Positions 26,289-39,848 of a DNA stretch of 64,000 bases are shown here, piece after piece (the stretch's first letter is position 1; each line of letters starts with the position of its first letter). Position numbers and translations under genes: made by a program. The notes beneath the pieces are model-generated. The model searched no databases and was not told the origin of the DNA. It was given only the letters and a program-made list of their open reading frames with translations. This DNA is from Promethearchaeota archaeon Loki_b31 (lineage in GTDB: Archaea; Asgardarchaeota; Lokiarchaeia; Sigyniarchaeales; SOKP01): positions 32,001 through 96,000 of the forward strand of contig NJBI01000001.1 of the NCBI GenBank assembly GCA_005222975.1, read 5' to 3'.

Positions 26289-26909
26289 ATGGTTAATAAA
26301 GAAGCAAACTCAAAAAAATTGGAAATAATAGTTCAAATCGCAAGTTTAAGAGATTCTCCAGGGATTCATAACGCACTTAAGCAAAACTTAATTGAAATAC
26401 TCGATTTTGACGAGATTCCAGACGAACAAAGAAAAGAATTAGAAGATCAAGGCTTCCTGAGAAAAGAAGTTGACGAAGATTTTTACACCCAACTTATTCA
26501 AGATGTTAACAAGAAGGTTTATGTTGCAAAAAATAAACGAGGAGATGTCATTGGTTTCGCAAGCATATATAATAACGAGAATAACATAAAAACGATTAGG
26601 AAAACTTTGCAAAATCTCCATATTAAAGATAAAGAAATTTTAGATTTGCTCGTTAACGAAAAAAGAAAATTCGCTTATTTGGACCAAATTAGCATCGTAC
26701 CTGAATTTAAACGCAAAGGCGTTGGGACGGCCATTCTGGAGAAAGCGTTGGTTGAAATGAACATTCCTTTAGTTGCGTTCATAGTAAAACTACCTTTAAT
26801 GAATAAAGCGTCCGCTCTATGGCACGAGTATGTTGGTTTTGAACTTGTAGGTACTGGAGATGGTGATTATAAAGGGAAAAAGTTTGAATGGTTGATATAT
26901 ATTAAATAG
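26289..26909 (+). CDS. GNAT family N-acetyltransferase
   Basis: QISIVPEFKRKGVGT acetyl-CoA motif and N-x-A-S...GF. Confidence 0.85.
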   Translation: MVNKEANSKKLEIIVQIASLRDSPGIHNALKQNLIEILDFDEIPDEQRKELEDQGFLRKEVDEDFYTQLIQDVNKKVYVAKNKRGDVIGFASIYNNENNIKTIRKTLQNLHIKDKEILDLLVNEKRKFAYLDQISIVPEFKRKGVGTAILEKALVEMNIPLVAFIVKLPLMNKASALWHEYVGFELVGTGDGDYKGKKFEWLIYIK

Positions 26910-27054: not shown

Positions 27055-27318
27055 TTACTCGTCCTGATTTTCTGTGTTAAACTCAAGATTTAAACTTTCG
27101 GCAAGTTTAAACCCTACTTCAAAGAAGTTCTTCATCGATTTATAGAAGATATCTCCTATAATATCGCCTAATTCTGCATTAGGTTCAGACGATGTCTCAA
27201 TTTTTCCAGGGATATTTAATTCTTTTATAAGATCCTCTTTTCTTTGCTCTAATTCTTCGCTTAAACTGTTTAAATTTATTTGAAAATCGTTCAGTTCTGA
27301 ACTTTGGCTCTTTTCCAT
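27055..27318 (-). CDS. Small acidic helical hypothetical protein (last gene of the lipid cluster)
   Basis: 87 aa ORF with GAGGT upstream, 27 bp from the previous gene. Confidence 0.65.
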   Translation of the reverse strand: MEKSQSSELNDFQINLNSLSEELEQRKEDLIKELNIPGKIETSSEPNAELGDIIGDIFYKSMKNFFEVGFKLAESLNLEFNTENQDE

Positions 27319-27345
27319 AATAAAACCTCATTTTTATGTTTAATT

Positions 27346-28041
27346 TTATGCTTCTTCAATATCGGGTTGTGGTTTAAGGGAATCAATAATTCTTAATATA
27401 TCCTCAGCGAGTTCATATCTCTCATCTCGATATTTTGGTCGAGATAATCGATTTTCTACCTTAAGCGGGGCCCCGATTTTTACTCTTAACCCCTGTGATT
27501 TAAACATACCTAAAATTTTCGCGTTTTCCGTGTATATTGCTATGGGGATTATAGGAGCCTTTCCAGCAACCGCAAATTTAATGATTCCCGCCATTGCTTT
27601 CACTTGAATTTCGGGGGTAAGTTTTGATTCTGGCGTCATGGCTACAAGATCCCCAACTTCGTTAAGATAGTGGAACACCTTATCTATAGGCACGGTATCG
27701 TCCTTATCGAGAGTACTGCGAAACATGCCTAACGACTTAAGAACGGGACCGTACATTTGATTCTTCATTAGTTTATGATGAACCATAAAATGAATTCTTC
27801 GTCCTGAAACTTGACTTATAATCGCCATGTCTCTTAACGCGTTGTCGCTTATCGTCGTTAATATCGCTTTTCCTATAGTAGGTATGTTTTCCCTTCCCTC
27901 AATTTTTAAGTCTGCGAATGCCGTTAAACCAAAGTTTCCTAAACCTTTGGTAACTGCGTAGAAAATATCTTGCATAAGATCCTTACTAAGCATCTTATCT
28001 TTTCCTTTCGTTTCGTTCTCCTCGGAAGATGTTTCAACCAT
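27346..28041 (-). CDS. PlsC/LPLAT-fold protein lacking the catalytic His
   Basis: IEGRENIP, IHFMV, AMTPES and APIIPIAI blocks; block I reads ISDNALRD instead of NHxSxxD. Confidence 0.8.
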   Translation of the reverse strand: MVETSSEENETKGKDKMLSKDLMQDIFYAVTKGLGNFGLTAFADLKIEGRENIPTIGKAILTTISDNALRDMAIISQVSGRRIHFMVHHKLMKNQMYGPVLKSLGMFRSTLDKDDTVPIDKVFHYLNEVGDLVAMTPESKLTPEIQVKAMAGIIKFAVAGKAPIIPIAIYTENAKILGMFKSQGLRVKIGAPLKVENRLSRPKYRDERYELAEDILRIIDSLKPQPDIEEA

Positions 28042-28055
28042 CTTTTTTCCCTCGT

Positions 28056-28250
28056 TTATAGTTTGTCTATGAAATTATTAACTTCCTCCATCCGTCTCTC
28101 GTAATATTCCTTTAACTCTTTTTCGGAAACAAATGAAGGGATTACTTTTTCTAAATAAATATCAAATATTGTCGATAATTTTGTTTTATGCTGCAAGGAC
28201 TCGAGAAATTCTCCGCCCAAGTCCTTTAATTGCTTAAAAAATTCTGTCAT
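28056..28250 (-). CDS. Small amphipathic helical hypothetical protein
   Basis: 64 aa ORF, 14 bp upstream of the PlsC-like gene. Confidence 0.6.
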   Translation of the reverse strand: MTEFFKQLKDLGGEFLESLQHKTKLSTIFDIYLEKVIPSFVSEKELKEYYERRMEEVNNFIDKL

Positions 28251-28411
28251 TTTGCTTCTCTTTTATTAAAAATTGGACAATATTTTAATAACTTTAGTAG
28301 ATATGTTTTTTCTTATTTTAATCAAATATTCGTTTATCTAATTTAAAGGTTGTAAATCCAATAATAGTTTGAAAAGTATGATATCAAAAGATTATAATAT
28401 TAAACTCGAAA

Positions 28412-29437
28412 TTAATCTACTTGATCCCATTTACCACAACGAGAGCCCCAGCGCGCTATAATTTTATTTCCCTCTTGAGGCATCTTTACTTGGACTATTT
28501 CGCAATTATTGGGACAGTCTCCGCAATTAAACGCTGAGGTTGTGAATTCAATTTCTGATACTTCGAGTCCTCGAAATACAGTTTGATGTTCGTGCTCTAA
28601 ATAGAAATCTCTAACTAAAATTGCCATTCCTAAAGCCCCCATTAGGACGTTATATTTAGGAACAATTACTTTGCAACCTAAATGTCTTTCAAATGCTTCA
28701 ATGATCCCTTCGTTGTAAGAAACGCCACCTTGGAACACAATGGGTTCTTCTAAGTCTTTACCCTTGCCTACATTATTCATATAATTGCGAACAAGAGAAT
28801 CGCATAAGCCTGCAATAATATCCTCCTTGGTGTAACCCGCGTTTTGCTTGTGAATCATATCGGATTCTGCGAATACAGTGCATCTTCCCGCAATACTCAC
28901 AGGATTTTTTGATTTTATAGCGTAAGCGCCAAACTCCTCTATAACAATCCCAAGCCTCGCTGCTTGATGATCGAGAAAGGAACCCGTTCCCGCAGCGCAT
29001 ACAGAATTCATCGCAAAATCTACAATTATTCCGTCCCGTAGAATGATAATTTTCGAATCTTGACCGCCAATTTCTAATATCGTTCTTACATCGGGATAGA
29101 TAGTCTGTGCCGCAACAGCGTGGGCAATTATCTCAGTTTTAGCGAGATCTGCACCAACGATTGCTTTTGTCAAATACCGTGCTGAACCTGTGGTACCACA
29201 ACAACGTATCGCGTATTCGCCTAAATTTTCGCTTTGTTCTATGTTATCGCGTAACTCTGCCATTCCTGCCTTGGCTGAGTCGATGGGAGAACCTCTATTT
29301 CGTAAAAATACGCTAGTAAGTAAATTTCCATCTGTATCCATTAGAACAAATTTGCAACTCACGCTTCCTATGTCAATACCAAGGAAAGCATCTTTTGTTT
29401 TTCCCTCTTTAACAACTTTTTCCTTAACTTCTACCAT
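28412..29437 (-). CDS. ATP-dependent [4Fe-4S] activator (BcrAD/BadFG/HgdC, ASKHA) with C-terminal Cys-rich extension
   Basis: GIDIGSVS, TGSAR, EIIAH, EIGGQDSK, CAAGTGSFL, RCTVFAES and QGGV motifs; tail CGDCPNNC...RCGKW. Confidence 0.92.
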   Translation of the reverse strand: MVEVKEKVVKEGKTKDAFLGIDIGSVSCKFVLMDTDGNLLTSVFLRNRGSPIDSAKAGMAELRDNIEQSENLGEYAIRCCGTTGSARYLTKAIVGADLAKTEIIAHAVAAQTIYPDVRTILEIGGQDSKIIILRDGIIVDFAMNSVCAAGTGSFLDHQAARLGIVIEEFGAYAIKSKNPVSIAGRCTVFAESDMIHKQNAGYTKEDIIAGLCDSLVRNYMNNVGKGKDLEEPIVFQGGVSYNEGIIEAFERHLGCKVIVPKYNVLMGALGMAILVRDFYLEHEHQTVFRGLEVSEIEFTTSAFNCGDCPNNCEIVQVKMPQEGNKIIARWGSRCGKWDQVD

Positions 29438-29455
29438 ATAATCTCACCTTTATCA

Positions 29456-30646
29456 TTAAACCGAATTTTGAATTAATTGAACGCATTCATTATAAAATAA
29501 ATCGCCATAATGCGGATAAATCTTTTTATTACCATTTGCTATGAATTTGGCGTTATTTTCAATTTCTTTATTCCTACGACCATACATTAGGTCAGAAAAT
29601 GCTTCTAACCTAGTCCTGAAGCCAGCCAATCCGCTCTGCTCGTCGAAAGAGAAGTAAATAATAGGAAGGTCGTATATTCCCTTAAGTTTATTAGTTATAA
29701 TCGTTCGAGCCGTCACTTCCGGCATACATAAGAACGGATATTGATGAACGAATCCATCAAATCCCGCTTGAGCTTTGTCTATATATTCCCCTAGCACCCA
29801 TTGGCATTCCCCGCCAATATCCATCGGAACATAAGGTCGTGAAAGGTGTTCCAACCACTTTCTGTGATAATTTAAATGGAATTTATGGACAACCCAGTCG
29901 TATAAGCTTAAGCTCTGGTGTACTTCAATGTTCATCTCACCCAGCTTTCTACGGATATCTAAGTTTACGTAGGGTTCCAAACTAATGTGAATCTCTCCCG
30001 AAACCCCAACCCGTAGAGGATTTCGGGTTTTATCTGTATCTAAATTGCTAAAATCTTGCTTAATAACGCTTTTGAATTTTTTCAATTCTGGGAGCGTATT
30101 AGTTTGATCAAGCTTATTTAATAAGTTTTTAATTAAATCCGTCGTATCCCCCTGATTGCGCTCGTAAGCTCGGAAGATACCTTCAGCAGTTTGAATATCA
30201 TTTAATAGCTTAGCTTTTTTTATGAAAAAAATAACAGCCTTAACGAATTTTGTATACATAAACAAATCTTTTCGACCACTAACTTCTTGAAGAGTTTTGA
30301 CCCATTTGAAATCAAGTAAATCTGCTTGGTCTAAAGGAATTACAGTGATGTCTTTATAACCCATATCTTTTAAAATGCGTTCTTGGACGCTAGCATAAAA
30401 GCCAAATCTACACGGCCCGCAATCAATTGCCATGATCAGCGTATCTGCTCCTTTTTCTATAGCATTCACGAAATCCCCAATAGTCGCTTTAAACGGGAAG
30501 CACACAAATTCGGGGGAATACTTGACTCCGATTTTAATTGCTTCTCGATTCGTTGGATCTGGAATAATTACATCTAGACCAAGGCTTGTAAATAAGGTTT
30601 TGAAGGCTACCCAGTTGGGGCCCATATTGGGAAAAGAAATTATCAT
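29456..30646 (-). CDS. 2-hydroxyacyl-CoA dehydratase/reductase-fold Fe-S subunit (PlsR/Ger C-terminal-like)
   Basis: CFPFK, GPCRFGFY, GEI...N, PFLCMPE and DEQSGLAGFRTRLEAF motifs. Confidence 0.82.
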   Translation of the reverse strand: MIISFPNMGPNWVAFKTLFTSLGLDVIIPDPTNREAIKIGVKYSPEFVCFPFKATIGDFVNAIEKGADTLIMAIDCGPCRFGFYASVQERILKDMGYKDITVIPLDQADLLDFKWVKTLQEVSGRKDLFMYTKFVKAVIFFIKKAKLLNDIQTAEGIFRAYERNQGDTTDLIKNLLNKLDQTNTLPELKKFKSVIKQDFSNLDTDKTRNPLRVGVSGEIHISLEPYVNLDIRRKLGEMNIEVHQSLSLYDWVVHKFHLNYHRKWLEHLSRPYVPMDIGGECQWVLGEYIDKAQAGFDGFVHQYPFLCMPEVTARTIITNKLKGIYDLPIIYFSFDEQSGLAGFRTRLEAFSDLMYGRRNKEIENNAKFIANGNKKIYPHYGDLFYNECVQLIQNSV

Positions 30647-30891
30647 TTCTTGAAAAAATCCTCAAGTTAATAGTCAGTATCTTTGTTTAAAGAATTTAAC
30701 TTAATTTTACTCAATCAAGTATTTGATTAAATAAAAAATTACCCAATACAAACAGATTATCAATTGTATGATAATTTTAATAAAAAAACTGAGTAAAATT
30801 AATAAATAAATTGCATAGAAAAATTGAATTATAAGATTATTTCGTTTGATTTTTTAAAATGGTTTATAAAAAATAGTTAATGGTTATTTCA

Positions 30892-31968
30892 TTAAGCAGA
30901 TTTAATCGTTAATTTATTTCTTTTCCCAACTGTTAACCCCTTTTTCTTTCTTCGGATCATTTCGACAAAACTTTCTACTCTTGTGAGCAATCCGGCTTCC
31001 CCGCTGTGCTCGTCCATTATAATTTCTAAAAAGGGAAGTCCTACAATTTTCATGTCTCTCATGATCAGTTCAGAGATAAGGCTATCTGGTCCGCATGCGA
31101 AGCTGATTAAGAAAATTACGCCATCTATTTCGTCGCGTCCTTTAGTAAGGAAAAATCGAATAGCCTGCATAATTTCCTCTTCGTGTCTCCAATAATTTTG
31201 TAATTTTGCCCCTCTGGGGTTCACTATAACGGGCTTCTTGAAAATCGATTCTGGCAGATTTTCTATGGTAATGTGATCAACTCCTTGGTCTTTCAATTTT
31301 TTTTGAAAATCGAGGTTAATAAAAGTATCAAATATATTATAACCATGCCCTAATAGCAAAAATCGTATATCTCCTTCGCTTTTTCTTTTTGGTAAGGTAA
31401 AAGGGCGATTTCTTTCGACTAACCTTAAAGCGTGGTTAACTGAGGCGCCCTCTCTAAGAAACTCGTGATAATCGTCGAAATATTTTTGCGCTTCTTTATA
31501 AGCATTTAAGGCTTTGCTTTGGCTTTTCCCTAGTTGCTTTCCGAGTTCAACGGCAGCTGTCGATATTGGAAACTCTTTAACATTTACTTCAAAATTTAAA
31601 ATCCTTGGAACGCCAGGTAGAATTTTAATCACATCTGGTAAAGACAAAAATTTAGGGCAAAAGTACGAATCTTTTACTTCCGAAACATACCTAGGCACAA
31701 AAACAAAGTCTAAATCAGGATGATCTTTTACTAACCTTAAGAGTTGACCGTAATATATCTTGACTGGAATACACAACTCTCCGAATCCGTGTGTTACGCC
31801 CTCCTCAACGATTTTCTTGTTTGTAAGGGGACTTATAACGATTTCAGCGTCCAGTTCTTCCAGTAGTTTTTTCCAAAATGGAAAATATCTATAAAAATGA
31901 AGTGCCCTTGGTATCCCTACTTTGATCCGTTTCTTCTCTGTTTGTTGAAGTTCTTCCATTAATTCCAC
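30892..31968 (-). CDS. DUF2229 (CoA-substrate-specific enzyme activase-associated) Fe-S subunit
   Basis: VGIPRAL, PFWK, CIPVK, FCPK, FACGPD and DEHSGEAGLLTRVESF motifs. Confidence 0.85.
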   Translation of the reverse strand: MELMEELQQTEKKRIKVGIPRALHFYRYFPFWKKLLEELDAEIVISPLTNKKIVEEGVTHGFGELCIPVKIYYGQLLRLVKDHPDLDFVFVPRYVSEVKDSYFCPKFLSLPDVIKILPGVPRILNFEVNVKEFPISTAAVELGKQLGKSQSKALNAYKEAQKYFDDYHEFLREGASVNHALRLVERNRPFTLPKRKSEGDIRFLLLGHGYNIFDTFINLDFQKKLKDQGVDHITIENLPESIFKKPVIVNPRGAKLQNYWRHEEEIMQAIRFFLTKGRDEIDGVIFLISFACGPDSLISELIMRDMKIVGLPFLEIIMDEHSGEAGLLTRVESFVEMIRRKKKGLTVGKRNKLTIKSA

Positions 31969-31980
31969 TTAAATTCTCGT

Positions 31981-33666
31981 TTAGGCATCTGGGCTGTCGT
32001 ATAAGAGCAAATCTTTAATTTGAGCCATCATATTATCCGTTAAACGCTTTAATTCGGCGTAATCTGGCATTGGTTTGCCCCAATGTTTTTTATGTTCCAT
32101 GAATGGGGGTCCTGCTTTTAATATAGACCCCCTATAGAAGTTCAACATCTTAGCGTGTTTTGGGTACGTATCTTCTGTACCCGTAATTCCTACTAATAAG
32201 ATGGGTACTTGCTTTTCAATAGCTAATCGCATAGCACCTGTGTGACCCTCTAAGAGTTCACCACCGCCTGGATTGGTCGTTCCTTCGGGGTACATCATAA
32301 CCAATTCTCCGTTATCAAGAAGATGTTTAGCGTAATTATACGAATCGACATCGTGTTGTCCCCTTTTTAAGGGAAACGCGTGGTGGGTTCTAACCCAAGC
32401 GTTAACGATTGGGAATTTAAACAAACCCTGTTTCGCCATTTGGTAAAGAATTCGTTTTTTATGGTACGTCATACAAGTCGCGGTCATAATTACGTCCCAC
32501 TCAGAATTGTGGTTGGTACAAAAAATTGCTGCCCCGGTATCAGGAATATATTTTTCAAAGTCAATTGCTTTATATGGCATCATTAAGTTGCCTAAATTAT
32601 GGACTGCCCACCCATGCATAGCCTGAGATGCTGCTGCGTATTGTTTGCGTAGTCCGAATGCTTCTAACGATTTTATGAAGGAGTACCAGAGGTCGTCAAC
32701 AAGTTGTAGAGCACCCATTCCTACATCTTTTAAATAACTCAAAGCTGAATTTGACTTTTTGGGTTTTTCAACATCTTCAGGGGAACCAATCGATAGCTCT
32801 TCTTCCTTTTTCTTTTTCCTTGTGTCCACAATGACATATTCTCTTAAATCAAGAACAATCTGTCTTAATTCATTGGTTAGTCTCTTAATTTCTTCGTAAG
32901 AAACATCGTCAATATTATACTTATCGTAGTAAATCGGATCACCTACACGTACTTTGACTTGAGTTGGTTTCATGACCAATTTACCTTTTGGTAACGCATT
33001 TCTAGACCCAATCACTGCCATTGGAACAATCGGCACACCCATTTCAATCGCGAGTCGAACTGCCCCCGTTTTAAACTCTCCTAGTTCCCACCCAGTTTCC
33101 TCCCTAGACCGGGTACTTTCAGGGAAAATGCCTACCCAGTCTCCGCTTCTGAGAATCTCTTTGGCAGTCTCCCAGCCTTGCTCAGGATTCTCTCGATCTA
33201 TTTTAAAGGCTCCTAAATTCGTAAAAAGCGTTTTAACTAAAGGAGTTTTAAAATTATCCAATTTACTCATGTAATGGATTCTTCTTTGACAAGCAGCACC
33301 GTAGAAGAATGGGTCCAAATGAGACTCGTGGCTTCCTGCAAGAATGCCTGGCCCGTATTCCGGAAATAAATTCCCTAAAGGATATTCTGCTTTAAAATTC
33401 CAGAACAATCGGGCAAAAAACTTTATATAAACATATGCCGTCCACCATTGGAGTTTTCCCTCTATTTCTCCAATGTTCAATCGGTCAATAGCTTGACGAT
33501 AGAGGTCGTTTAATGGATCGATTGGATTATATTTTAAAATTTTATACATCGAGTTTTGGTGTCGTTTACCGAACTCTAAATCTTCCTTTTCTTTATCTTC
33601 AGTAGTTTTTATAATACTCGTATCTACTGAAGTTTTATATTCTTCTTTAAGCACCATTAATTTCAT
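31981..33666 (-). CDS. plsC: Tandem two-domain lysophospholipid/glycerol-phosphate acyltransferase (PlsC-PlsC)
   Basis: Domain 1 has SHESHLD...IDR...IFPESTRS...PIVP. Domain 2 has NHNSEWD...LKRG...YPEGT...PIL. Both HxxxxD motifs are intact. Confidence 0.9.
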   Translation of the reverse strand: MKLMVLKEEYKTSVDTSIIKTTEDKEKEDLEFGKRHQNSMYKILKYNPIDPLNDLYRQAIDRLNIGEIEGKLQWWTAYVYIKFFARLFWNFKAEYPLGNLFPEYGPGILAGSHESHLDPFFYGAACQRRIHYMSKLDNFKTPLVKTLFTNLGAFKIDRENPEQGWETAKEILRSGDWVGIFPESTRSREETGWELGEFKTGAVRLAIEMGVPIVPMAVIGSRNALPKGKLVMKPTQVKVRVGDPIYYDKYNIDDVSYEEIKRLTNELRQIVLDLREYVIVDTRKKKKEEELSIGSPEDVEKPKKSNSALSYLKDVGMGALQLVDDLWYSFIKSLEAFGLRKQYAAASQAMHGWAVHNLGNLMMPYKAIDFEKYIPDTGAAIFCTNHNSEWDVIMTATCMTYHKKRILYQMAKQGLFKFPIVNAWVRTHHAFPLKRGQHDVDSYNYAKHLLDNGELVMMYPEGTTNPGGGELLEGHTGAMRLAIEKQVPILLVGITGTEDTYPKHAKMLNFYRGSILKAGPPFMEHKKHWGKPMPDYAELKRLTDNMMAQIKDLLLYDSPDA

Positions 33667-33671
33667 CCTCC

Positions 33672-34454
33672 CTAGGATTTTATCTCAATCCTATTTTGAG
33701 TATTTGAATTTGATAAATTTTTATTTTCAATTATTTTAATTAATTCATCTAACGAGTCAATCAATAAGCTTGGGTTAAATTTCGCCAACATCTCTCTTTT
33801 ACTTACTCCGCTCGCAACACCAATCGTCCAAACTCCAGCTTCTCTTCCTGCTTCAATATCTGAAGGCATATCTCCAATCATTACAAATTCCTTCAATTTG
33901 CAGGATTTATAACTTTCAAAAACAGGGTTTAACGCGTTTGGGTCGGGTTTAAGAGCGGGAAGTAGATCTGCTCCAAAAATTCCTTTAAAAAAGCTTTTTA
34001 CTTTTTTTTCTTCTAAATGAGGAATTATATTCTTAGTCAGGTTGTGAGAGACAATAAATAAATCGTAAGTTTTTTTATATTTATTAATAAATTCCGTTGC
34101 TTCTGGATAAAACGATGCGTCTTTCGCGTACTCTAGATAACGCGTGAAAATTTTCGTTGCTATTCGTAGTTTTTTTAAATATGTTAGCGGTTGGAGCGAT
34201 TCTATGTATTTAAACAAATTAAAAGACTCCAATACGATTCTTGGAAGCGGAAGCCCTTGAATTGTCTCCATTAAAGCCCCTATTTCTTGCATCGTGCTTT
34301 CAATGTCAGCTGAAATGTGTTTTTCCTCGTATATTTCTTCTATTGCGTCCTTAAGCGTTTTTCTGATATCGAGGATAGTTCCGTCAAAATCAAAGATAAT
34401 TCCTCGAATCGTTCCATTTTGAAGCCGTTTAATTAATTGATTGTCAGCAAGCAT
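33672..34454 (-). CDS. HAD-superfamily phosphatase
   Basis: FDFDGTILD, VSH, KPDP and GDMPSD motifs; ends 5 bp before the plsC start. Confidence 0.9.
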   Translation of the reverse strand: MLADNQLIKRLQNGTIRGIIFDFDGTILDIRKTLKDAIEEIYEEKHISADIESTMQEIGALMETIQGLPLPRIVLESFNLFKYIESLQPLTYLKKLRIATKIFTRYLEYAKDASFYPEATEFINKYKKTYDLFIVSHNLTKNIIPHLEEKKVKSFFKGIFGADLLPALKPDPNALNPVFESYKSCKLKEFVMIGDMPSDIEAGREAGVWTIGVASGVSKREMLAKFNPSLLIDSLDELIKIIENKNLSNSNTQNRIEIKS

Positions 34455-34943: not shown

Positions 34944-35363
34944 TTGACAAATATGTCAGAAAATAAACTTGGTAAGGTAAAAGAAGGAACTTATCCGGAG
35001 GGAGTTTTTAATCTTTATAACCCATTAAATTCAAATGATAAATTTAAAGAGAAATTCGCTAAAGAATCCTTTAAGATTTTATTAAATCCAAAAGATGGTG
35101 AATATGCCGCTTTAATAACTGTTGACAAAGGAACAGTTTCTGTACAGGGAATTGAAAACAAAGATAAGAAGGACTTAACAGATGAAAAACTTGGTTGGGA
35201 TGGCATGATGAAAACAACAATAGCACTATTTGATGAGATTGGTGAGGGAAAACTGTCGCAAAGCGATATCATAAAAAAAGTTGTAGCCCGCAAAATAAAA
35301 ATGAAAGCTCCAAAATTTTTAATGAAGTTAGACGAAATGGCGGCCTTTTTAAAAAGTGACTAA
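34944..35363 (+). CDS. SCP2 sterol/lipid-carrier-like protein
   Basis: Pattern ALITVDKGTVSV...DGMMKT...F..I.EGKLS...KIKMK..KFLMKL, typical of the SCP2 fold. Confidence 0.65.
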   Translation: MTNMSENKLGKVKEGTYPEGVFNLYNPLNSNDKFKEKFAKESFKILLNPKDGEYAALITVDKGTVSVQGIENKDKKDLTDEKLGWDGMMKTTIALFDEIGEGKLSQSDIIKKVVARKIKMKAPKFLMKLDEMAAFLKSD

Positions 35364-35590: not shown

Positions 35591-36784
35591 ATGAAAGCAG
35601 ATAATTACAGAGTGTTTCCAATATTCCTTTTAGCATTTACGCGTGTTTCGACAGGAGTGGCGATTGGTTTAGCTATTCCACTTTATTTAATTGAGATAGG
35701 ATTAAATCCTGAAATAATTGGAATCATTACTTCTGGAACAGCCATGGCATACTTATTTTCGCCTTTAATCTTTAGAAATGTACAGAAAAAGCTTGGTGTA
35801 AAACCTACAATTATCATATCATCATTAGGTTTCTTACTTATTCAAGTAATCTTGCAGTTCTCAAAAGATCCATTGTTGATTTATTTCTTGTTAATTTTAG
35901 ATGGAACATTTTTAGGATTGTTTTGGCAAATTTTAATGGGCGCACTTTCGGCGATATCAAATTCAGAAGAATATCGTAAAAATAACTCATTAAAGGATAA
36001 ATTAATGAAAAAGTATAGTTTAGCTTGGAATTTTGGAGGAATTTTTAGCTACGCTTTAGGTTTCTTTATTTTGTTTTATATTGAAAATATTCAGATAATG
36101 TTTTTATTTGCGTTATTTTTTGCTATTATCGGCTTTAGTATAGCTTTAATTATTCAGGAACCCTCTCATAGTTTCGATAAAGAGATTATCGTTCCAATTG
36201 ACGAGGGAATAAAAGCAATTCCTCAAAGAGAACACATTTCTTTTCCTATAATTCTGCCGCTTTTTATGATTGGAATTTATGGGTTTTTAATTGGAGGTTT
36301 GGGATTAATTTATCCAATTAAATCTGAAATACTAAATTTCGCTCTCTTCACTAATTATCTATTTTTCTTTTTAAGAATGAGTACTCAAACGATTTCAATT
36401 TCAAAATCTATGGACTTTAAAATAAAAACAACCAAAAAAATGATTCCTATATCCAATCTACTTATCATGTTTTCCCTTTTCTTGATGGGAATAAATCAAA
36501 ACTTATTTATCTTTGCAATTCTCTTTTGTGCGTTTGGAATTTTTAATTCTTTTTATTATACCCTTGCTTTCAAACTAATAGTATTTCGGAATATAGCGAA
36601 TAACACTTCAAAATACAGCACTTATTTTGAAACTGCGATTGGAATTGGATTCTTTTTTGCGCCAATACTTTGTGGTTTTATCGCTGCGGTAGATGCAAAC
36701 TTAGCATTTTTCTTTTTATCCCTATTATCGTTGTTAAGCTTAGTTATATATCTACTTTCTAAAAACAAAATTGAAACTAATTAA
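35591..36784 (+). CDS. MFS transporter
   Basis: About 12 TM segments in a 6+6 arrangement. Confidence 0.8.
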   Translation: MKADNYRVFPIFLLAFTRVSTGVAIGLAIPLYLIEIGLNPEIIGIITSGTAMAYLFSPLIFRNVQKKLGVKPTIIISSLGFLLIQVILQFSKDPLLIYFLLILDGTFLGLFWQILMGALSAISNSEEYRKNNSLKDKLMKKYSLAWNFGGIFSYALGFFILFYIENIQIMFLFALFFAIIGFSIALIIQEPSHSFDKEIIVPIDEGIKAIPQREHISFPIILPLFMIGIYGFLIGGLGLIYPIKSEILNFALFTNYLFFFLRMSTQTISISKSMDFKIKTTKKMIPISNLLIMFSLFLMGINQNLFIFAILFCAFGIFNSFYYTLAFKLIVFRNIANNTSKYSTYFETAIGIGFFFAPILCGFIAAVDANLAFFFLSLLSLLSLVIYLLSKNKIETN

Positions 36785-36880
36785 CAAATTAAATTTCGGC
36801 TTTAATATTTCATTACATTAATATGAGAAAGCTCATTTTAGAATCCATATAAGGGATATTATTATTAGAGCTCAGTTCTT

Positions 36881-38332
36881 ATGGAAAATATCAATTCTAA
36901 TAATTCAGCAGATTCTATAAGCTACAATCGCATATTATGGCCTATTTATTTTCTTAATGGGTTCCAAAGTATTGCCTGGGGCGGGATTATCTTTCTTATC
37001 GTACCAATATCAAGAATTATGTGGCCAACTGAGCCAACTCACGCTTTAGAAATGGGAACATTAATTACAGTGCTATCATGGTCTGCTTCGATTTCAGGAT
37101 TAGTATTTGGACACTTAATTGATAAATACTCTCGTAAAAAGATAATCGTTATTATTTCAATATTTAGGGGGCTTGCGATAATAATGCTTGGATTTGCATT
37201 GGAGGGCGGCGGTTCGTCAGCTTGGATATATTTCTTAGTTTTCATAAGTATTTTTGGGATGTTTGCGGGATTAAGTTGGCCCGCCGTAATATCTTTGTCT
37301 AACGATATCGTTCCTAAAGCTTTTCGTTCGCGTTTTTTTGGCGTTTATGAGATAGTTCGCTCTCTTACTATGACCTTTGGGTTTTTAATTGGAGCTTTTT
37401 TAGTGCAGAACGGGCTGTGGAGACAGTATTTTTGAGGTACAGGATTAGGTATTTTAATTTGTGCCCTAATTTTTGCAATTCATAACGACGAGCCTAAAAG
37501 AGGAGCTCAACAAGAAGAGTTGTTACATATCCTTAAAAAGAAAGATGTCAATTACAACTTTAAAATCAATCGGGAGACTATGCTTAAAACAATGTTAAGT
37601 AAAACTAATAAAGTTGCCTTAATTGAAGGAATATTTACTCAGATTCTAATGGGCTCTATCAACTTTTTAATTCTTACCCTTATCCAAAATGAACCTCACA
37701 ATATTTCCGAATTTTCAACTAGTATTTTCATGATTACTTTTGGGTTAACGGGAGGAATTGTCGGACAGTTACTATTAGCAAGGTTAAGCGATAAATTAGC
37801 TAAAAAGCGGCCTATTATAAGAATACCAATTATTATTATAGCTATTATTGGGGGTCTATTCACTTTTATTCTTTTCTTTTTTATTCCCTGGCCCCATTTG
37901 ACTATTGAGCAAGGGAAAGATGTTGCTTTCTTAATGGCACTCCCAATAATTTGGTTAATGGGTATTATGTTCTTCTCATCAAGATCTATTTTTTCTCTAT
38001 ATATGGTTAACCAAAGTCCATTATTACAAGAAATAAATTTGCCAGAAGCACAAGGTCAAATAGTTTCATGGAATCAATTTTTAGAAAATTTCGGGAGAGG
38101 TATGGGCCCCTTATTAAGTGGGATTCTATTGGCTGTGACAAGCATGAATTATCAATCCACAATTTTAATAATTGCACTATGTATTCTTCCCGGAGTAATA
38201 TTATGGGGGTTTGCGATAAAATGGTTTCCTTCTGATGCTTATAACATAAGAGAGATATTAAAGGGAAGAGTTGACATTTTAGAATCAAATGAAGGGATGT
38301 CATCTCCCTCAGATCACCAAATAAAACCTTAA
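36881..38332 (+). pseudogene. MFS transporter with a single in-frame TGA at 37433-37435
   Basis: ORFs 36881-37435 and 37520-38332 are in the same frame. Read-through gives WRQYF*GTGLGILI...EPKRG, colinear with the paralogue at 38430. Confidence 0.85.
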
Positions 38333-38429
38333 TGAAATAAAAAACTCTTATAGTTGTAATGTTTCATCAATTTAAAATTTGAATTCTCATTTTCCATTCC
38401 ATATACTTATGAATTTATAGAATTTAGAA

Positions 38430-39848
38430 TTGAAGTTAGAAATGGAATTAAACGATTCTCATCAATCTTATAATAAATTAATTTGGCCAGTATATTTACT
38501 CAACGGATTTAATAGTATAGCATTTGCGGGCATAATTATTCTAATGGTACCATTGTCTTCGCTTATTTGGCCAGGAGAAGATTATCACGCGCTAGAGATG
38601 GGAATTTTAATGACCACACTTTTATGGACTTCTTCTCTGTCAGGTTTATTCCTTGGTAGGCTTATTGATAAGTATTCACGAGTAAAAATCTTATTAATTA
38701 TATCCATTGCCAGAAGTTTTTGCATGATTATGCTCGGGTTCGCTATTGCCGGTCAAGGTATACTGACATGGTGGTATTTTTTTTTATTTGTTCTAATTTT
38801 TGCTCTCTTTGCTGGAGGAAGTTATCCTGCCATAGTTTCACTATCTAACGATATTGTTCCAATAAAACATCGCTCTAAATTCTTTGGATATTTTGGTATT
38901 TTTGGATCCGTCTTTATGATGCTTGGTTTTCTAATATCTGGTGCTCTAGTGCAGTTTGGGTATTGGAGATTATATTTTTTAAGTATAGGAATTGCGGTTC
39001 TTCTTTCGGGCTTAATATTTTTTTTTTATGTTAAGGAACCAAAAAGGGGTGTTCAAAGCATTTTATTACGAGATGTACTTAAAGATCGATCGATTGAATA
39101 TGATTTTAAGAGGGATAAAGAATTAATGCGTAGAACTATGCTATCTCGCACTAATATTGCAGCTTTAATTGAGGGAATATTTACCAATGTATTTATGGGA
39201 AGTTTGGATATGATTATTTTACCTTATTTACAAACCCCTCCACATAATCTCTCTCCACTAATAACAGGATTATTTGTCGTTATTTTTGGAGTTATTGGAC
39301 GCGTTATAGGGCAAATTTTACTCGCTCGAGTGTCAGATAAGTTAGCAGAGAAAAATGATGTAAGAAGGATTGTTTTTATAATATTTTCTTTAGTAGGAGG
39401 GTAAATTACTTTTGTTTTAATGTTTTTCGTACCATTGCCTTTTTTAACGCCTGAAGAAGGAGCAAACATCGTTCTATTCTTTTCACTTCCTTTAACATAT
39501 GTAATGGGTATTTTAATTTTAAGTTCTGACGCTATATCTTCTTTATACATGGTTAATCAACCACCGATCCTACAAGAAATAAATCTTCCAGAAGCTCAAG
39601 GCCAAATTGTTTCATGGAATCAATTCTTAGAGAATATCGGTTATGGTATGGGGCCTTTAATCGCAGGTATTTTCATATCCATTTTCGGACAGAATTATAA
39701 GATTAGTGCTGTGATAATAACTATTTTTGTAATTCCTGGTATAATTTTGTGGACATTGTCTTGTAATTGGTATACACAAGATAAAGAAAGAATTAGGACT
39801 ATACTAAGTGAACGAGCAACAATTTTGAAATCAAGAAATAAAAACTAA
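38430..39848 (+). pseudogene. MFS transporter with a single in-frame TAA at 39402-39404
   Basis: ORFs 38430-39404 and 39420-39848 are in the same frame. SLVGG*ITFVLMFF aligns with IIGGLFTFILFF of the upstream paralogue. Confidence 0.85.

Follow-up and report, generated by a model that had tools for sequence, protein, structure and literature searches.

An acyltransferase operon with an inserted reductase cassette

The window analysed here, a stretch of 64,000 nucleotides of contig NJBI01000001.1 from the Asgard archaeon Promethearchaeota archaeon Loki_b31, carries at 27055-34454 a gene cluster in which PlsC-type acyltransferase genes enclose a reductase of the DUF2229 family, related to the ether-lipid enzymes PlsA/PlsR and Ger. 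The listing of open reading frames (ORFs) placed eight co-oriented minus-strand genes here, in the order and at the coordinates that an earlier note on this DNA had given. The tight spacing claimed in that note, several gaps of only 5-27 bp, was also found: from the HAD gene down to the 87-aa (amino acid) gene the gaps are 5, 12, 245, 18, 161, 14 and 27 bp, five of the seven being tight and those of 245 and 161 bp the exceptions. Domains were called by Pfam and NCBIfam scans of the translated ORFs, and the features are as follows.

33672-34454, minus strand: phosphatase of the HAD-IA family, 260 aa, opening the operon (HAD_2)
31981-33666, minus strand: tandem LPLAT/PlsC acyltransferase, 561 aa (two PF01553 domains, both active sites intact)
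30892-31968, minus strand: Red1, DUF2229 subunit, 358 aa, predicted [4Fe-4S] protein (PF09989)
30647-30891, no strand: spacer, 245 bp, AT-rich and non-coding (read from the sequence)
29456-30646, minus strand: Red2, second DUF2229/HGD-D-like reductase subunit, 396 aa, counterpart of PlsR (partial PF09989 and the end of HGD-D)
28412-29437, minus strand: Act, ATP-dependent activase of the Act2 type, 341 aa, with a C-terminal four-cysteine tail (PF01869, TIGR00241)
28056-28250, minus strand: helical protein, 64 aa, accompanying the reductase cassette (synteny)
27346-28041, minus strand: probably dead LPLAT/PlsC homologue, 231 aa, part of the acyltransferase core (weak PF01553)
27055-27318, minus strand: acidic protein, 87 aa, last gene of the acyltransferase core (synteny)

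The 561-aa protein matched two Acyltransferase/PlsC (PF01553) domains at E 1e-50 and TIGR00530 at 154 bits, and both of its halves hold the catalytic dyad and a PEGT-type block (HX4D blocks HESHLD with PESTR, and HNSEWD with PEGT). The 231-aa protein matched PF01553 weakly, at 32 bits, and its HX4D block reads DNALRD, with the catalytic His replaced. All seven of its orthologues read D/K/E-N-x-x-x-D at this block, and two counterparts in Asgard family f2 have Q (QSxxD). The protein, referred to below as the dead PlsC, has the LPLAT fold but, judged by these residues, is probably not catalytic. Its counterpart is fused to two PlsC domains at the locus of one relative (L021) and probably at a second (L158). 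The HAD protein matched HAD_2 at E 2e-24 and contains the DFDGT motif; its matches to the NCBIfam phosphoglycolate-phosphatase and pyrophosphatase models were sub-threshold only, and its gene is syntenic in the loci of 14 relatives. The 87-aa protein has no Pfam family and is weakly conserved (29-52% identity), with synteny in L003, L010, L016, L153, L154 and L156. The source assembly comprises 3.5 Mb in 99 contigs and is estimated to be 92% complete. The three PF01553 domains of the 561-aa and 231-aa proteins are the only ones found in it, and Red1 and Red2 are its only DUF2229 matches.

The three reductase genes correspond to modules of longer, fused proteins. Among 91 longer matches, proteins of ~1400-1500 aa read Act1-Act2-Red1-Red2, and the activase, Red1 and Red2 of the window are collinear with their Act2, Red1 and Red2 modules, at identities of 27-45% for the activase, 22-29% for Red1 and about 22-26% for Red2. 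The closest fused proteins are those of the P0133 group (29% for Red1, 45% for the activase), whose nearest genome matches are in Thermodesulfobacteriota, Nitrospirota, Armatimonadota, Brocadia and Syntrophorhabdus. A group of 984-aa proteins reads Act1-Act2-Red1, the architecture described for C. perfringens PlsA, in which a separate Red2 is PlsR (PMC12838417). The subunit set that the earlier note had called PlsA/PlsR/Ger-like was borne out part for part, with all six cluster cysteines and the activase tail shared.

Red1 matched PF09989 (DUF2229) over positions 1-217 of 218, at 147 bits. Against HGD-D (PF06050) it gave no full-length match; only the C-terminal end of the profile, positions 283-342, was matched, at 27.6 bits with a cut-off of 28.4 bits. 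Cys66, Cys104 and Cys292 are invariant in 76 sequences of the split family, in which the subunits are separate chains, and correspond by motif to the three invariant cysteines of Red1 in 20 fused proteins. The AlphaFold2 (AF2) model of Red1 has a pLDDT (predicted local distance difference test score) of 92, and its best Foldseek matches were HadBC, DCCP, BzdNO and MbdON (3o3m/3o3n/3o3o, 7yyl, 8s02 and 9gai; E 1e-9 to 1e-7, template modelling (TM) scores 0.45-0.54). On this model, the predicted fold of Red1 is that of the dehydratases and reductases. By sequence, similarity of the PDB dehydratases to Red1 is confined to the last 60 residues, at 20 bits. Red2 matched positions 10-73, the N-terminal part, of PF09989 at 44 bits together with the C-terminal end of HGD-D, and carries DCGPCRFG. 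Its Cys49, Cys79 and Cys307, which do not vary across 16 relatives, fall in the motifs VCYP, GQCR and FGC, where fused Red2 has its three near-invariant cysteines.

The activase matched PF01869 (BcrAD_BadFG) at 165 bits and TIGR00241 at 199 bits, and in the PDB HadI (E 1e-37) and HgdC (E 1e-34). Its cluster-cysteine motifs, CAAGTG and RCTVF, align with both Act1 and Act2 of the fused proteins. Its C-terminal tail reads CGDCPNNC...RC (CxxCxxxC...C), and every split activase examined has such a tail, as does Act2 in eight fused proteins; it is missing from Act1 of the fused proteins and from the classical 262-aa activase of the same genome. The 64-aa protein, which has no Pfam family, is 55-89% identical in seven syntenic loci, and its gene is missing together with Red1, Red2 and Act in L153-L156. 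A complex prediction for Red1 and Red2 with the dead PlsC as partner gave a score of 0.00 (mark 0.32), which is no verdict on binding.

Linkage, variation and phylogeny of the split reductase

The closest homologues of Red1, at 78-95% identity, have source names of Promethearchaeota, Lokiarchaeota and other Asgard archaea. Within f1, the family to which the window belongs, 16 loci have the HAD and tandem PlsC genes followed by Red1, an insert that varies, Red2, Act, the 64-aa gene and then the dead PlsC. Family f2 has Red1-Red2-Act preceded by a pair of PlsC-type genes, and in f3 and f4 a HAD gene and a triple-PlsC protein, whose third PlsC domain resembles the dead PlsC, adjoin Red1-Red2-Act. 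Synteny with plsC in related Asgard genomes, on which the earlier note had staked its reading, is thus kept in f1 and rearranged in f2, f3 and f4. Because the order recurs in 16 loci of f1 and is rearranged in three further Asgard families, the gene arrangement is more than chance. PF01553 and Red1 homologues were also counted by family in 300 Asgard genomes. Both are present in f1-f4; PlsC is present and Red1 homologues are few in f16, f24, f27 and f30; and Red1 homologues occur with no PlsC in f7 (27/28 and 0/28 genomes) and f29 (11/11 and 0/11).

The reductase cassette varies within the genus. Four relatives (G083, G174, G252 and G300; 92-100% complete) keep the HAD, tandem PlsC and dead PlsC genes, and three of the four the 87-aa gene, with the dead PlsC staying beside the tandem PlsC. 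Red1, Red2, Act and the 64-aa gene are missing at this locus in all four, and no Red1 homologue was found anywhere in their genomes at E<=1e-10. The genes that border the cluster in the window can likewise be recognised around the acyltransferase operon of G252 and G300. The acyltransferase operon is therefore the core, and the reductase with its 64-aa companion an accessory insert. This pattern of presence and absence fits an optional tailoring enzyme for the operon product, and it fits an insertion hotspot too. We favour tailoring because the linkage recurs in other gene orders in f2-f4.

The 245-bp spacer between Red1 and Red2 is the site at which five relatives (L003, L004, L005, L007 and L008) carry one or two extra DUF2229 systems; in L017 only 18 bp stand at this position. 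A second split system lies between Red1 and Red2 at L003:5207-10001 and L004:3781-8641, and consists of a fusion of a VAO-type flavoprotein domain (FAD_binding_4) to Red1 of 812-837 aa, an activase 53% identical to that of the window, and a Red2 40% identical. The flavoprotein domain was considered as an alkyl-dihydroxyacetone phosphate synthase (AGPS) and rejected, its best PDB matches being cytokinin dehydrogenases and DprE1, with AGPS reached only at E 4e-5. At L004:8975-13335, L005:11019-13976, L007:11091-15451 and L008:5019-9391, a 974-985-aa Act-Act-Red1 protein of PlsA architecture lies beside the Red1 orthologue. It is followed in L004, L007 and L008 by an ORF of 466-470 aa, which had no Pfam match in L004 and L007, the two tested, and is weakly Red2-like in L004 (hhalign probability 77%). 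Many metagenome-assembled contigs of relatives, among them G071:C116, G065:C127, G057:C9, G008:C90 and G049:C5, have an end lying no more than about 1 kb from the Red1 orthologue, and these breaks fit strain-level variation or repeated paralogous cassettes at a variable slot.

The phylogeny separates the reductase from the classical dehydratases of the same genome. Eight full-length HGD-D proteins (107-282 bits) are encoded elsewhere in the assembly, and its only other activase, the classical 262-aa one, belongs to a separate HGD-D cluster. This cluster, on contig C13 (L125:1279-11912), comprises three HGD-D proteins and the 262-aa activase beside octopine-dehydrogenase-family, MutE-like, D-Ala-D-Ala-ligase-like and alanine-racemase-like genes. 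In a tree of 93 rows the eight classical proteins formed the outgroup with support 99, and the window subunits did not group with fermentation dehydratases; such a grouping is what the earlier note had named as fatal to its proposal. The reductase parts are thus members of the DUF2229 family with the predicted dehydratase/reductase fold, and not enzymes of amino-acid fermentation.

The DUF2229 proteins of this tree divide into a Red1 clade and a Red2 clade, each of which holds one window subunit. The split proteins of either subtree form the sister group of a clade that takes in all fused proteins and is defined by architecture, as the experimentally tested PlsA and Ger enzymes themselves are not among the tree rows. 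The fused clade contains proteins of Brocadia pituitae and Syntrophorhabdus aromaticivorans and also fused Asgard proteins. A mixture-model tree of Red1 rooted on Red2 again gave a fused clade (99/96) and a split clade (91/85) as sister groups. When named split proteins of Clostridia were added, the Red1 of the window fell in an Asgard-only subclade with support 98. The Asgard-only Red1 subclade consists of exactly the PlsC-linked systems of f1, f2 and f3 and the flavoprotein-fused paralogues (support 95/89 and 98); other parts of the split branch hold the Firmicutes proteins and the Asgard paralogue from f29.

The split branch is large. With E<=1e-3 as the limit an exhaustive search returned 2619 representative clusters, and with E<=1e-30 it returned 383; most are of 310-370 aa, and the named split members come from many anaerobic Firmicutes. 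The earlier note had set the split architecture with its single activase apart from the fused bacterial enzymes. The window does have three chains, but this is not a peculiarity of archaea, since Firmicutes have such cassettes as well. In Acetivibrio cellulolyticus and Clostridium thermosuccinogenes, Red1-Red2-Act genes overlap one another and have housekeeping neighbours, and A. cellulolyticus additionally has a fused enzyme of 1446 aa. Across 61 genomes (G301-G361) of the order of Clostridia to which A. cellulolyticus belongs, DUF2229 genes occur in 59: 42 genomes have fused and split forms, 8 fused only, 9 split only and 2 neither. The 42 genomes with both carry one to three split Red1 genes.

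Proposed function and alternatives

What is observed comprises the parts and the family they belong to, the conserved ligands, the linkage of the genes and the pattern of presence and absence; from these we infer a substrate, a chemistry and a product for the cassette. Our leading proposal, held tentatively and at somewhat less than an even chance, is that it reduces acyl-lipid esters to non-isoprenoid vinyl or alkyl ethers as an accessory to the acyltransferase operon. The core operon would consist of the HAD phosphatase, the tandem PlsC, the non-catalytic PlsC homologue and the 87-aa protein, with the reductase cassette inserted in its middle. The tandem acyltransferase would build an acyl-glycerol-phosphate lipid from acyl-coenzyme A (acyl-CoA), and the HAD enzyme would take off a phosphate at some step. 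The cassette would be an ATP-driven iron-sulfur radical enzyme, in which Red1 and Red2 each have three cysteines suited to a [4Fe-4S] cluster and the single-domain activase presumably forms a homodimer with a bridging [4Fe-4S] cluster, like HgdC and HadI. The activase would spend ATP to push a low-potential electron into Red1/Red2, which would reduce the ester carbonyl of the lipid through a ketyl radical, the product being a vinyl or alkyl ether like those of PlsA/PlsR and Ger. Diacyl lipids are turned into plasmalogens by PlsA/PlsR (PMC9702350), Ger is oxygen-sensitive and converts sn-1 esters to alkyl ethers (PMC13159169), and both systems reduce sn-1 esters (PMC9702350, PMC13159169). Membership of DUF2229, the PF01553 genes being the only ones found in the genome, the synteny in f1-f4, the supported Red1 subclade and the genes of PlsA architecture in the same slot support ester-to-ether reduction.

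Precursor supply can be read in part from the rest of the genome. It has geranylgeranylglyceryl phosphate (GGGP) synthase and five glycerophosphodiesterases, and a search for glycerol-1-phosphate dehydrogenase gave four weak partial matches to Fe-ADH_2, at 31-35 bits. Contig C49 (L124:2631-5240) carries a tandem pair of genes of the PlsY family, encoding 401 and 406 aa; the proteins are twice the ordinary length of PlsY, and their C-terminal ~200 aa have no Pfam match. PlsC and PlsY accept both glycerol-phosphate stereoforms (PMC13400652). The earlier note had proposed checking for a supply of glycerol-3-phosphate, and no C-terminal domain of the glycerol-3-phosphate dehydrogenase GpsA was found in the genome; a GpsA-like match on contig C13 proved to be the octopine-dehydrogenase-family protein. 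With five glycerophosphodiesterases and no GpsA, glycerol phosphate may come from scavenged diesters. No PP-binding (acyl carrier protein, ACP) domain was found in the genome either, and acyl-CoA is therefore likely to be the acyl donor.

A series of observations weighs against ester-to-ether reduction, the missing ACP and GpsA domains among them. Red1 and Red2 fall outside the clade of PlsA/Ger architecture, in the split branch, so that the kinship with PlsA and Ger claimed in the earlier note holds at the level of the DUF2229 family and fails at the level of the fused clade. No characterised member of the split family is known to us. In the one Clostridia order 42 of the 61 genomes have both split and fused forms, and the two are also found side by side inside single Asgard loci. 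Because they co-occur so often, the split enzyme is probably not a plain equivalent of, or replacement for, PlsA, and this coexistence and the sister-clade position weaken the ester-to-ether proposal. All confirmed producers of alkyl ethers keep two activase domains followed by Red1 (PMC13159169), and the window has a single activase gene of 341 aa in place of two tandem domains. The earlier note had spoken of a self-contained module, a description that cannot stand when four relatives of the same genus keep the acyltransferase operon without the reductase cassette. In one of them, G083, the slot holds an unrelated ORF of 204 aa, and the slot may partly be an insertion hotspot.

The distribution outside f1-f4 adds to these points. 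Families f7 and f29 lack PF01553 domains and have 2-7 split cassettes. The genes adjoining 18 paralogue cassettes, two of them in f2 and most of the others in f7 and f29, were most often aminotransferases (7), ornithine-cyclodeaminase-like genes (4), pyridine-nucleotide disulfide oxidoreductases (4) and GNAT acetyltransferases (4); PlsC did not occur among them. Bacterial fused genes were scanned with a hidden Markov model built from the Asgard acyltransferase domains, which detected one bacterial LPLAT and so was able to find such proteins, and an LPLAT lay within 6 kb in 1 of 80 loci. Because an LPLAT stands near only this one, the PlsC linkage is specific to one Asgard clade and is not a property of the family. 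The one lipid analysis of a cultured Lokiarchaeon that PMC13400652 discusses found archaeal lipids only, by a method that, according to the same paper, could have missed ester-bonded lipids.

An alternative that we consider unlikely is that the cassette tailors the acyl donor and not the lipid: a CoA thioester, such as a 2-hydroxyacyl-CoA or some other activated acid, would be dehydrated or reduced by it, leaving the acyltransferases to transfer the product to glycerol phosphate. Acyl-CoA as the likely currency, with no ACP found, would suit such a route, as would a fold and an activase that are those of 2-hydroxyacyl-CoA dehydratases and class I benzoyl-CoA reductases, although the sequence family is DUF2229 and not HGD-D, and the genome already has eight classical HGD-D proteins with an activase of their own. 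The split family is sister to the lipid-active fused clade and not within it, and the split cassettes of PlsC-free Asgard families adjoin aminotransferase and ornithine-cyclodeaminase-like genes; yet the cluster itself contains no gene for a CoA-transferase, a CoA-ligase or a 2-hydroxyacid dehydrogenase.

The cassette might also act on a glycerolipid by a chemistry other than that of PlsA and Ger, such as reduction of the sn-2 ester, saturation of a vinyl ether, or action on a mixed isoprenoid/acyl lipid. We regard this as improbable. A different lipid chemistry would explain why split and fused forms coexist in the Clostridia genomes and in single Asgard loci, it agrees with the linkage to the acyltransferase operon, and how Thermotoga forms its sn-2 ether bonds is described as unknown (PMC8788747). 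Against it, the fused enzymes have the same cluster ligands and core motifs, which give no hint of a different chemistry. There is a similarly slim prospect that the operon gap is a hotspot for mobile DUF2229 cassettes and the reductase serves an unrelated pathway, as presence and absence between identical flanks in one genus, a slot holding up to three different DUF2229 systems or the 204-aa ORF, contigs breaking at the slot and the unrelated neighbours of split cassettes elsewhere might suggest, but a single hotspot does not suffice when PlsC adjoins Red1-Red2-Act in four Asgard families, in varied gene orders and fusion states, and the PlsC-linked Red1 proteins form one supported subclade.

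Ester-to-ether reduction can be extended to a wider proposal, which we put forward as a doubtful but possible one. In Lokiarchaeia-type Asgard archaea the cassette would be a strain-variable accessory module turning the acyl lipids made by their sole PlsC-type enzymes into non-isoprenoid or mixed isoprenoid/alkyl ether glycerolipids, and the split branch would be a new class of lipid ether synthase that would also operate in many anaerobic Firmicutes.

Further observations concern the cluster and its surroundings. A helix motif, D-[IL]-[FW]-Y-x3-K-x-[LF]-x2-(F/V)-G-[LF], is present in similar form in three copies in the window: in the 87-aa protein (DIFYKSMKNFFEVGF), at the start of the dead PlsC (DIFYAVTKGLGNFGL) and before the second PlsC domain (DLWYSFIKSLEAFGL), where it lies in the linker between the two domains of the 31981-33666 protein. 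The motif may correspond to the N-terminal helix by which LPLAT domains face the membrane, in which case the 87-aa gene would be a stand-alone copy or remnant. The cluster is bordered on one side by a GNAT acetyltransferase gene at 26289-26909 (plus strand) and on the other by a run of major facilitator superfamily (MFS) transporter ORFs at 35591-39404 (plus strand). Divergent from the cluster, at 34944-35363 (plus strand), lies a 139-aa gene of an Asgard family that has 1-7 copies per genome and some of whose matches sit inside open frames of 363-534 aa. The 139-aa protein was considered as an SCP2-like lipid carrier, a lead that came from just one Atlas cluster at rank 8 (43% of members with SCP2), and the idea was dropped: there was no Pfam match even at E 5, the gene is multi-copy, and its synteny with the cluster is limited to the closest kin. 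A promoter and terminator scan with a bacterial consensus was uninformative, giving fewer matches than shuffled sequence did.

Significance and comparison with known systems

Whether relatives of the eukaryotic host lineage can make membrane lipids derived from fatty acyl groups is a central open point of the lipid divide. Ger homologues have been reported in Lokiarchaeota (including Prometheoarchaeum) and Heimdallarchaeota by a search that required at least 30% query coverage (PMC13159169), a cut-off by which the short split chains would probably have been missed. PlsC and PlsY in Loki- and Thorarchaeota have been described (PMC6737245) and discussed (PMC13400652). These were separate calls of gene presence, and full-text searches found no paper on an operon-level link, on an archaeal split form or on a cassette that is present or absent. 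What the locus adds is that the only PlsC-type acyltransferases found in a genome share an operon with a reductase of an ether-lipid family, that close relatives with the same operon and no reductase cassette provide a natural control, and that the gene set is defined and suited to anaerobic expression in E. coli, as was done for PlsA and Ger. The split branch is also probably more than a cut-up PlsA. If it acts on lipids, searches that demand the fused architecture under-count the potential of anaerobes to make ether lipids.

The closest comparison is with PlsA/PlsR (C. perfringens CPE1194/1195, with single-gene forms in Enterococcus and Lactococcus). The modules are the same, namely activase, Red1 (DUF2229) and Red2, and PlsR is likewise a separate Red2 chain (PMC12838417). 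Each Red module has its three-cysteine motifs, and the activase that precedes Red1 has the four-cysteine tail. The difference is that PlsA fuses two activase domains to Red1, whereas the window has one activase, Red1 and Red2 as three chains, in a clade sister to the proteins of PlsA architecture. Ger (Thermotoga maritima Tmari_0479 and Desulfatibacillum alkenivorans) belongs to the same DUF2229/HGD-D/BcrAD family and is a single Act-Act-Red1-Red2 chain, in contrast to the three chains of the window.

The split Red1-Red2-activase cassettes of anaerobic Firmicutes share the three-chain architecture and the branch of the window, at 33-39% identity to Red1. Unlike the window cassette, they stand alone as operons whose genes overlap, surrounded by housekeeping genes and lacking an acyltransferase. 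The 2-hydroxyacyl-CoA dehydratases (HadBC/HadI, HgdAB/HgdC), the class I benzoyl-CoA reductases and the double-cubane cluster proteins share the predicted fold of Red1 and an ATP-driven activase. They differ in that the genome's own classical members score 107-282 bits against HGD-D and form the outgroup to the DUF2229 proteins, Red1 and Red2 included.

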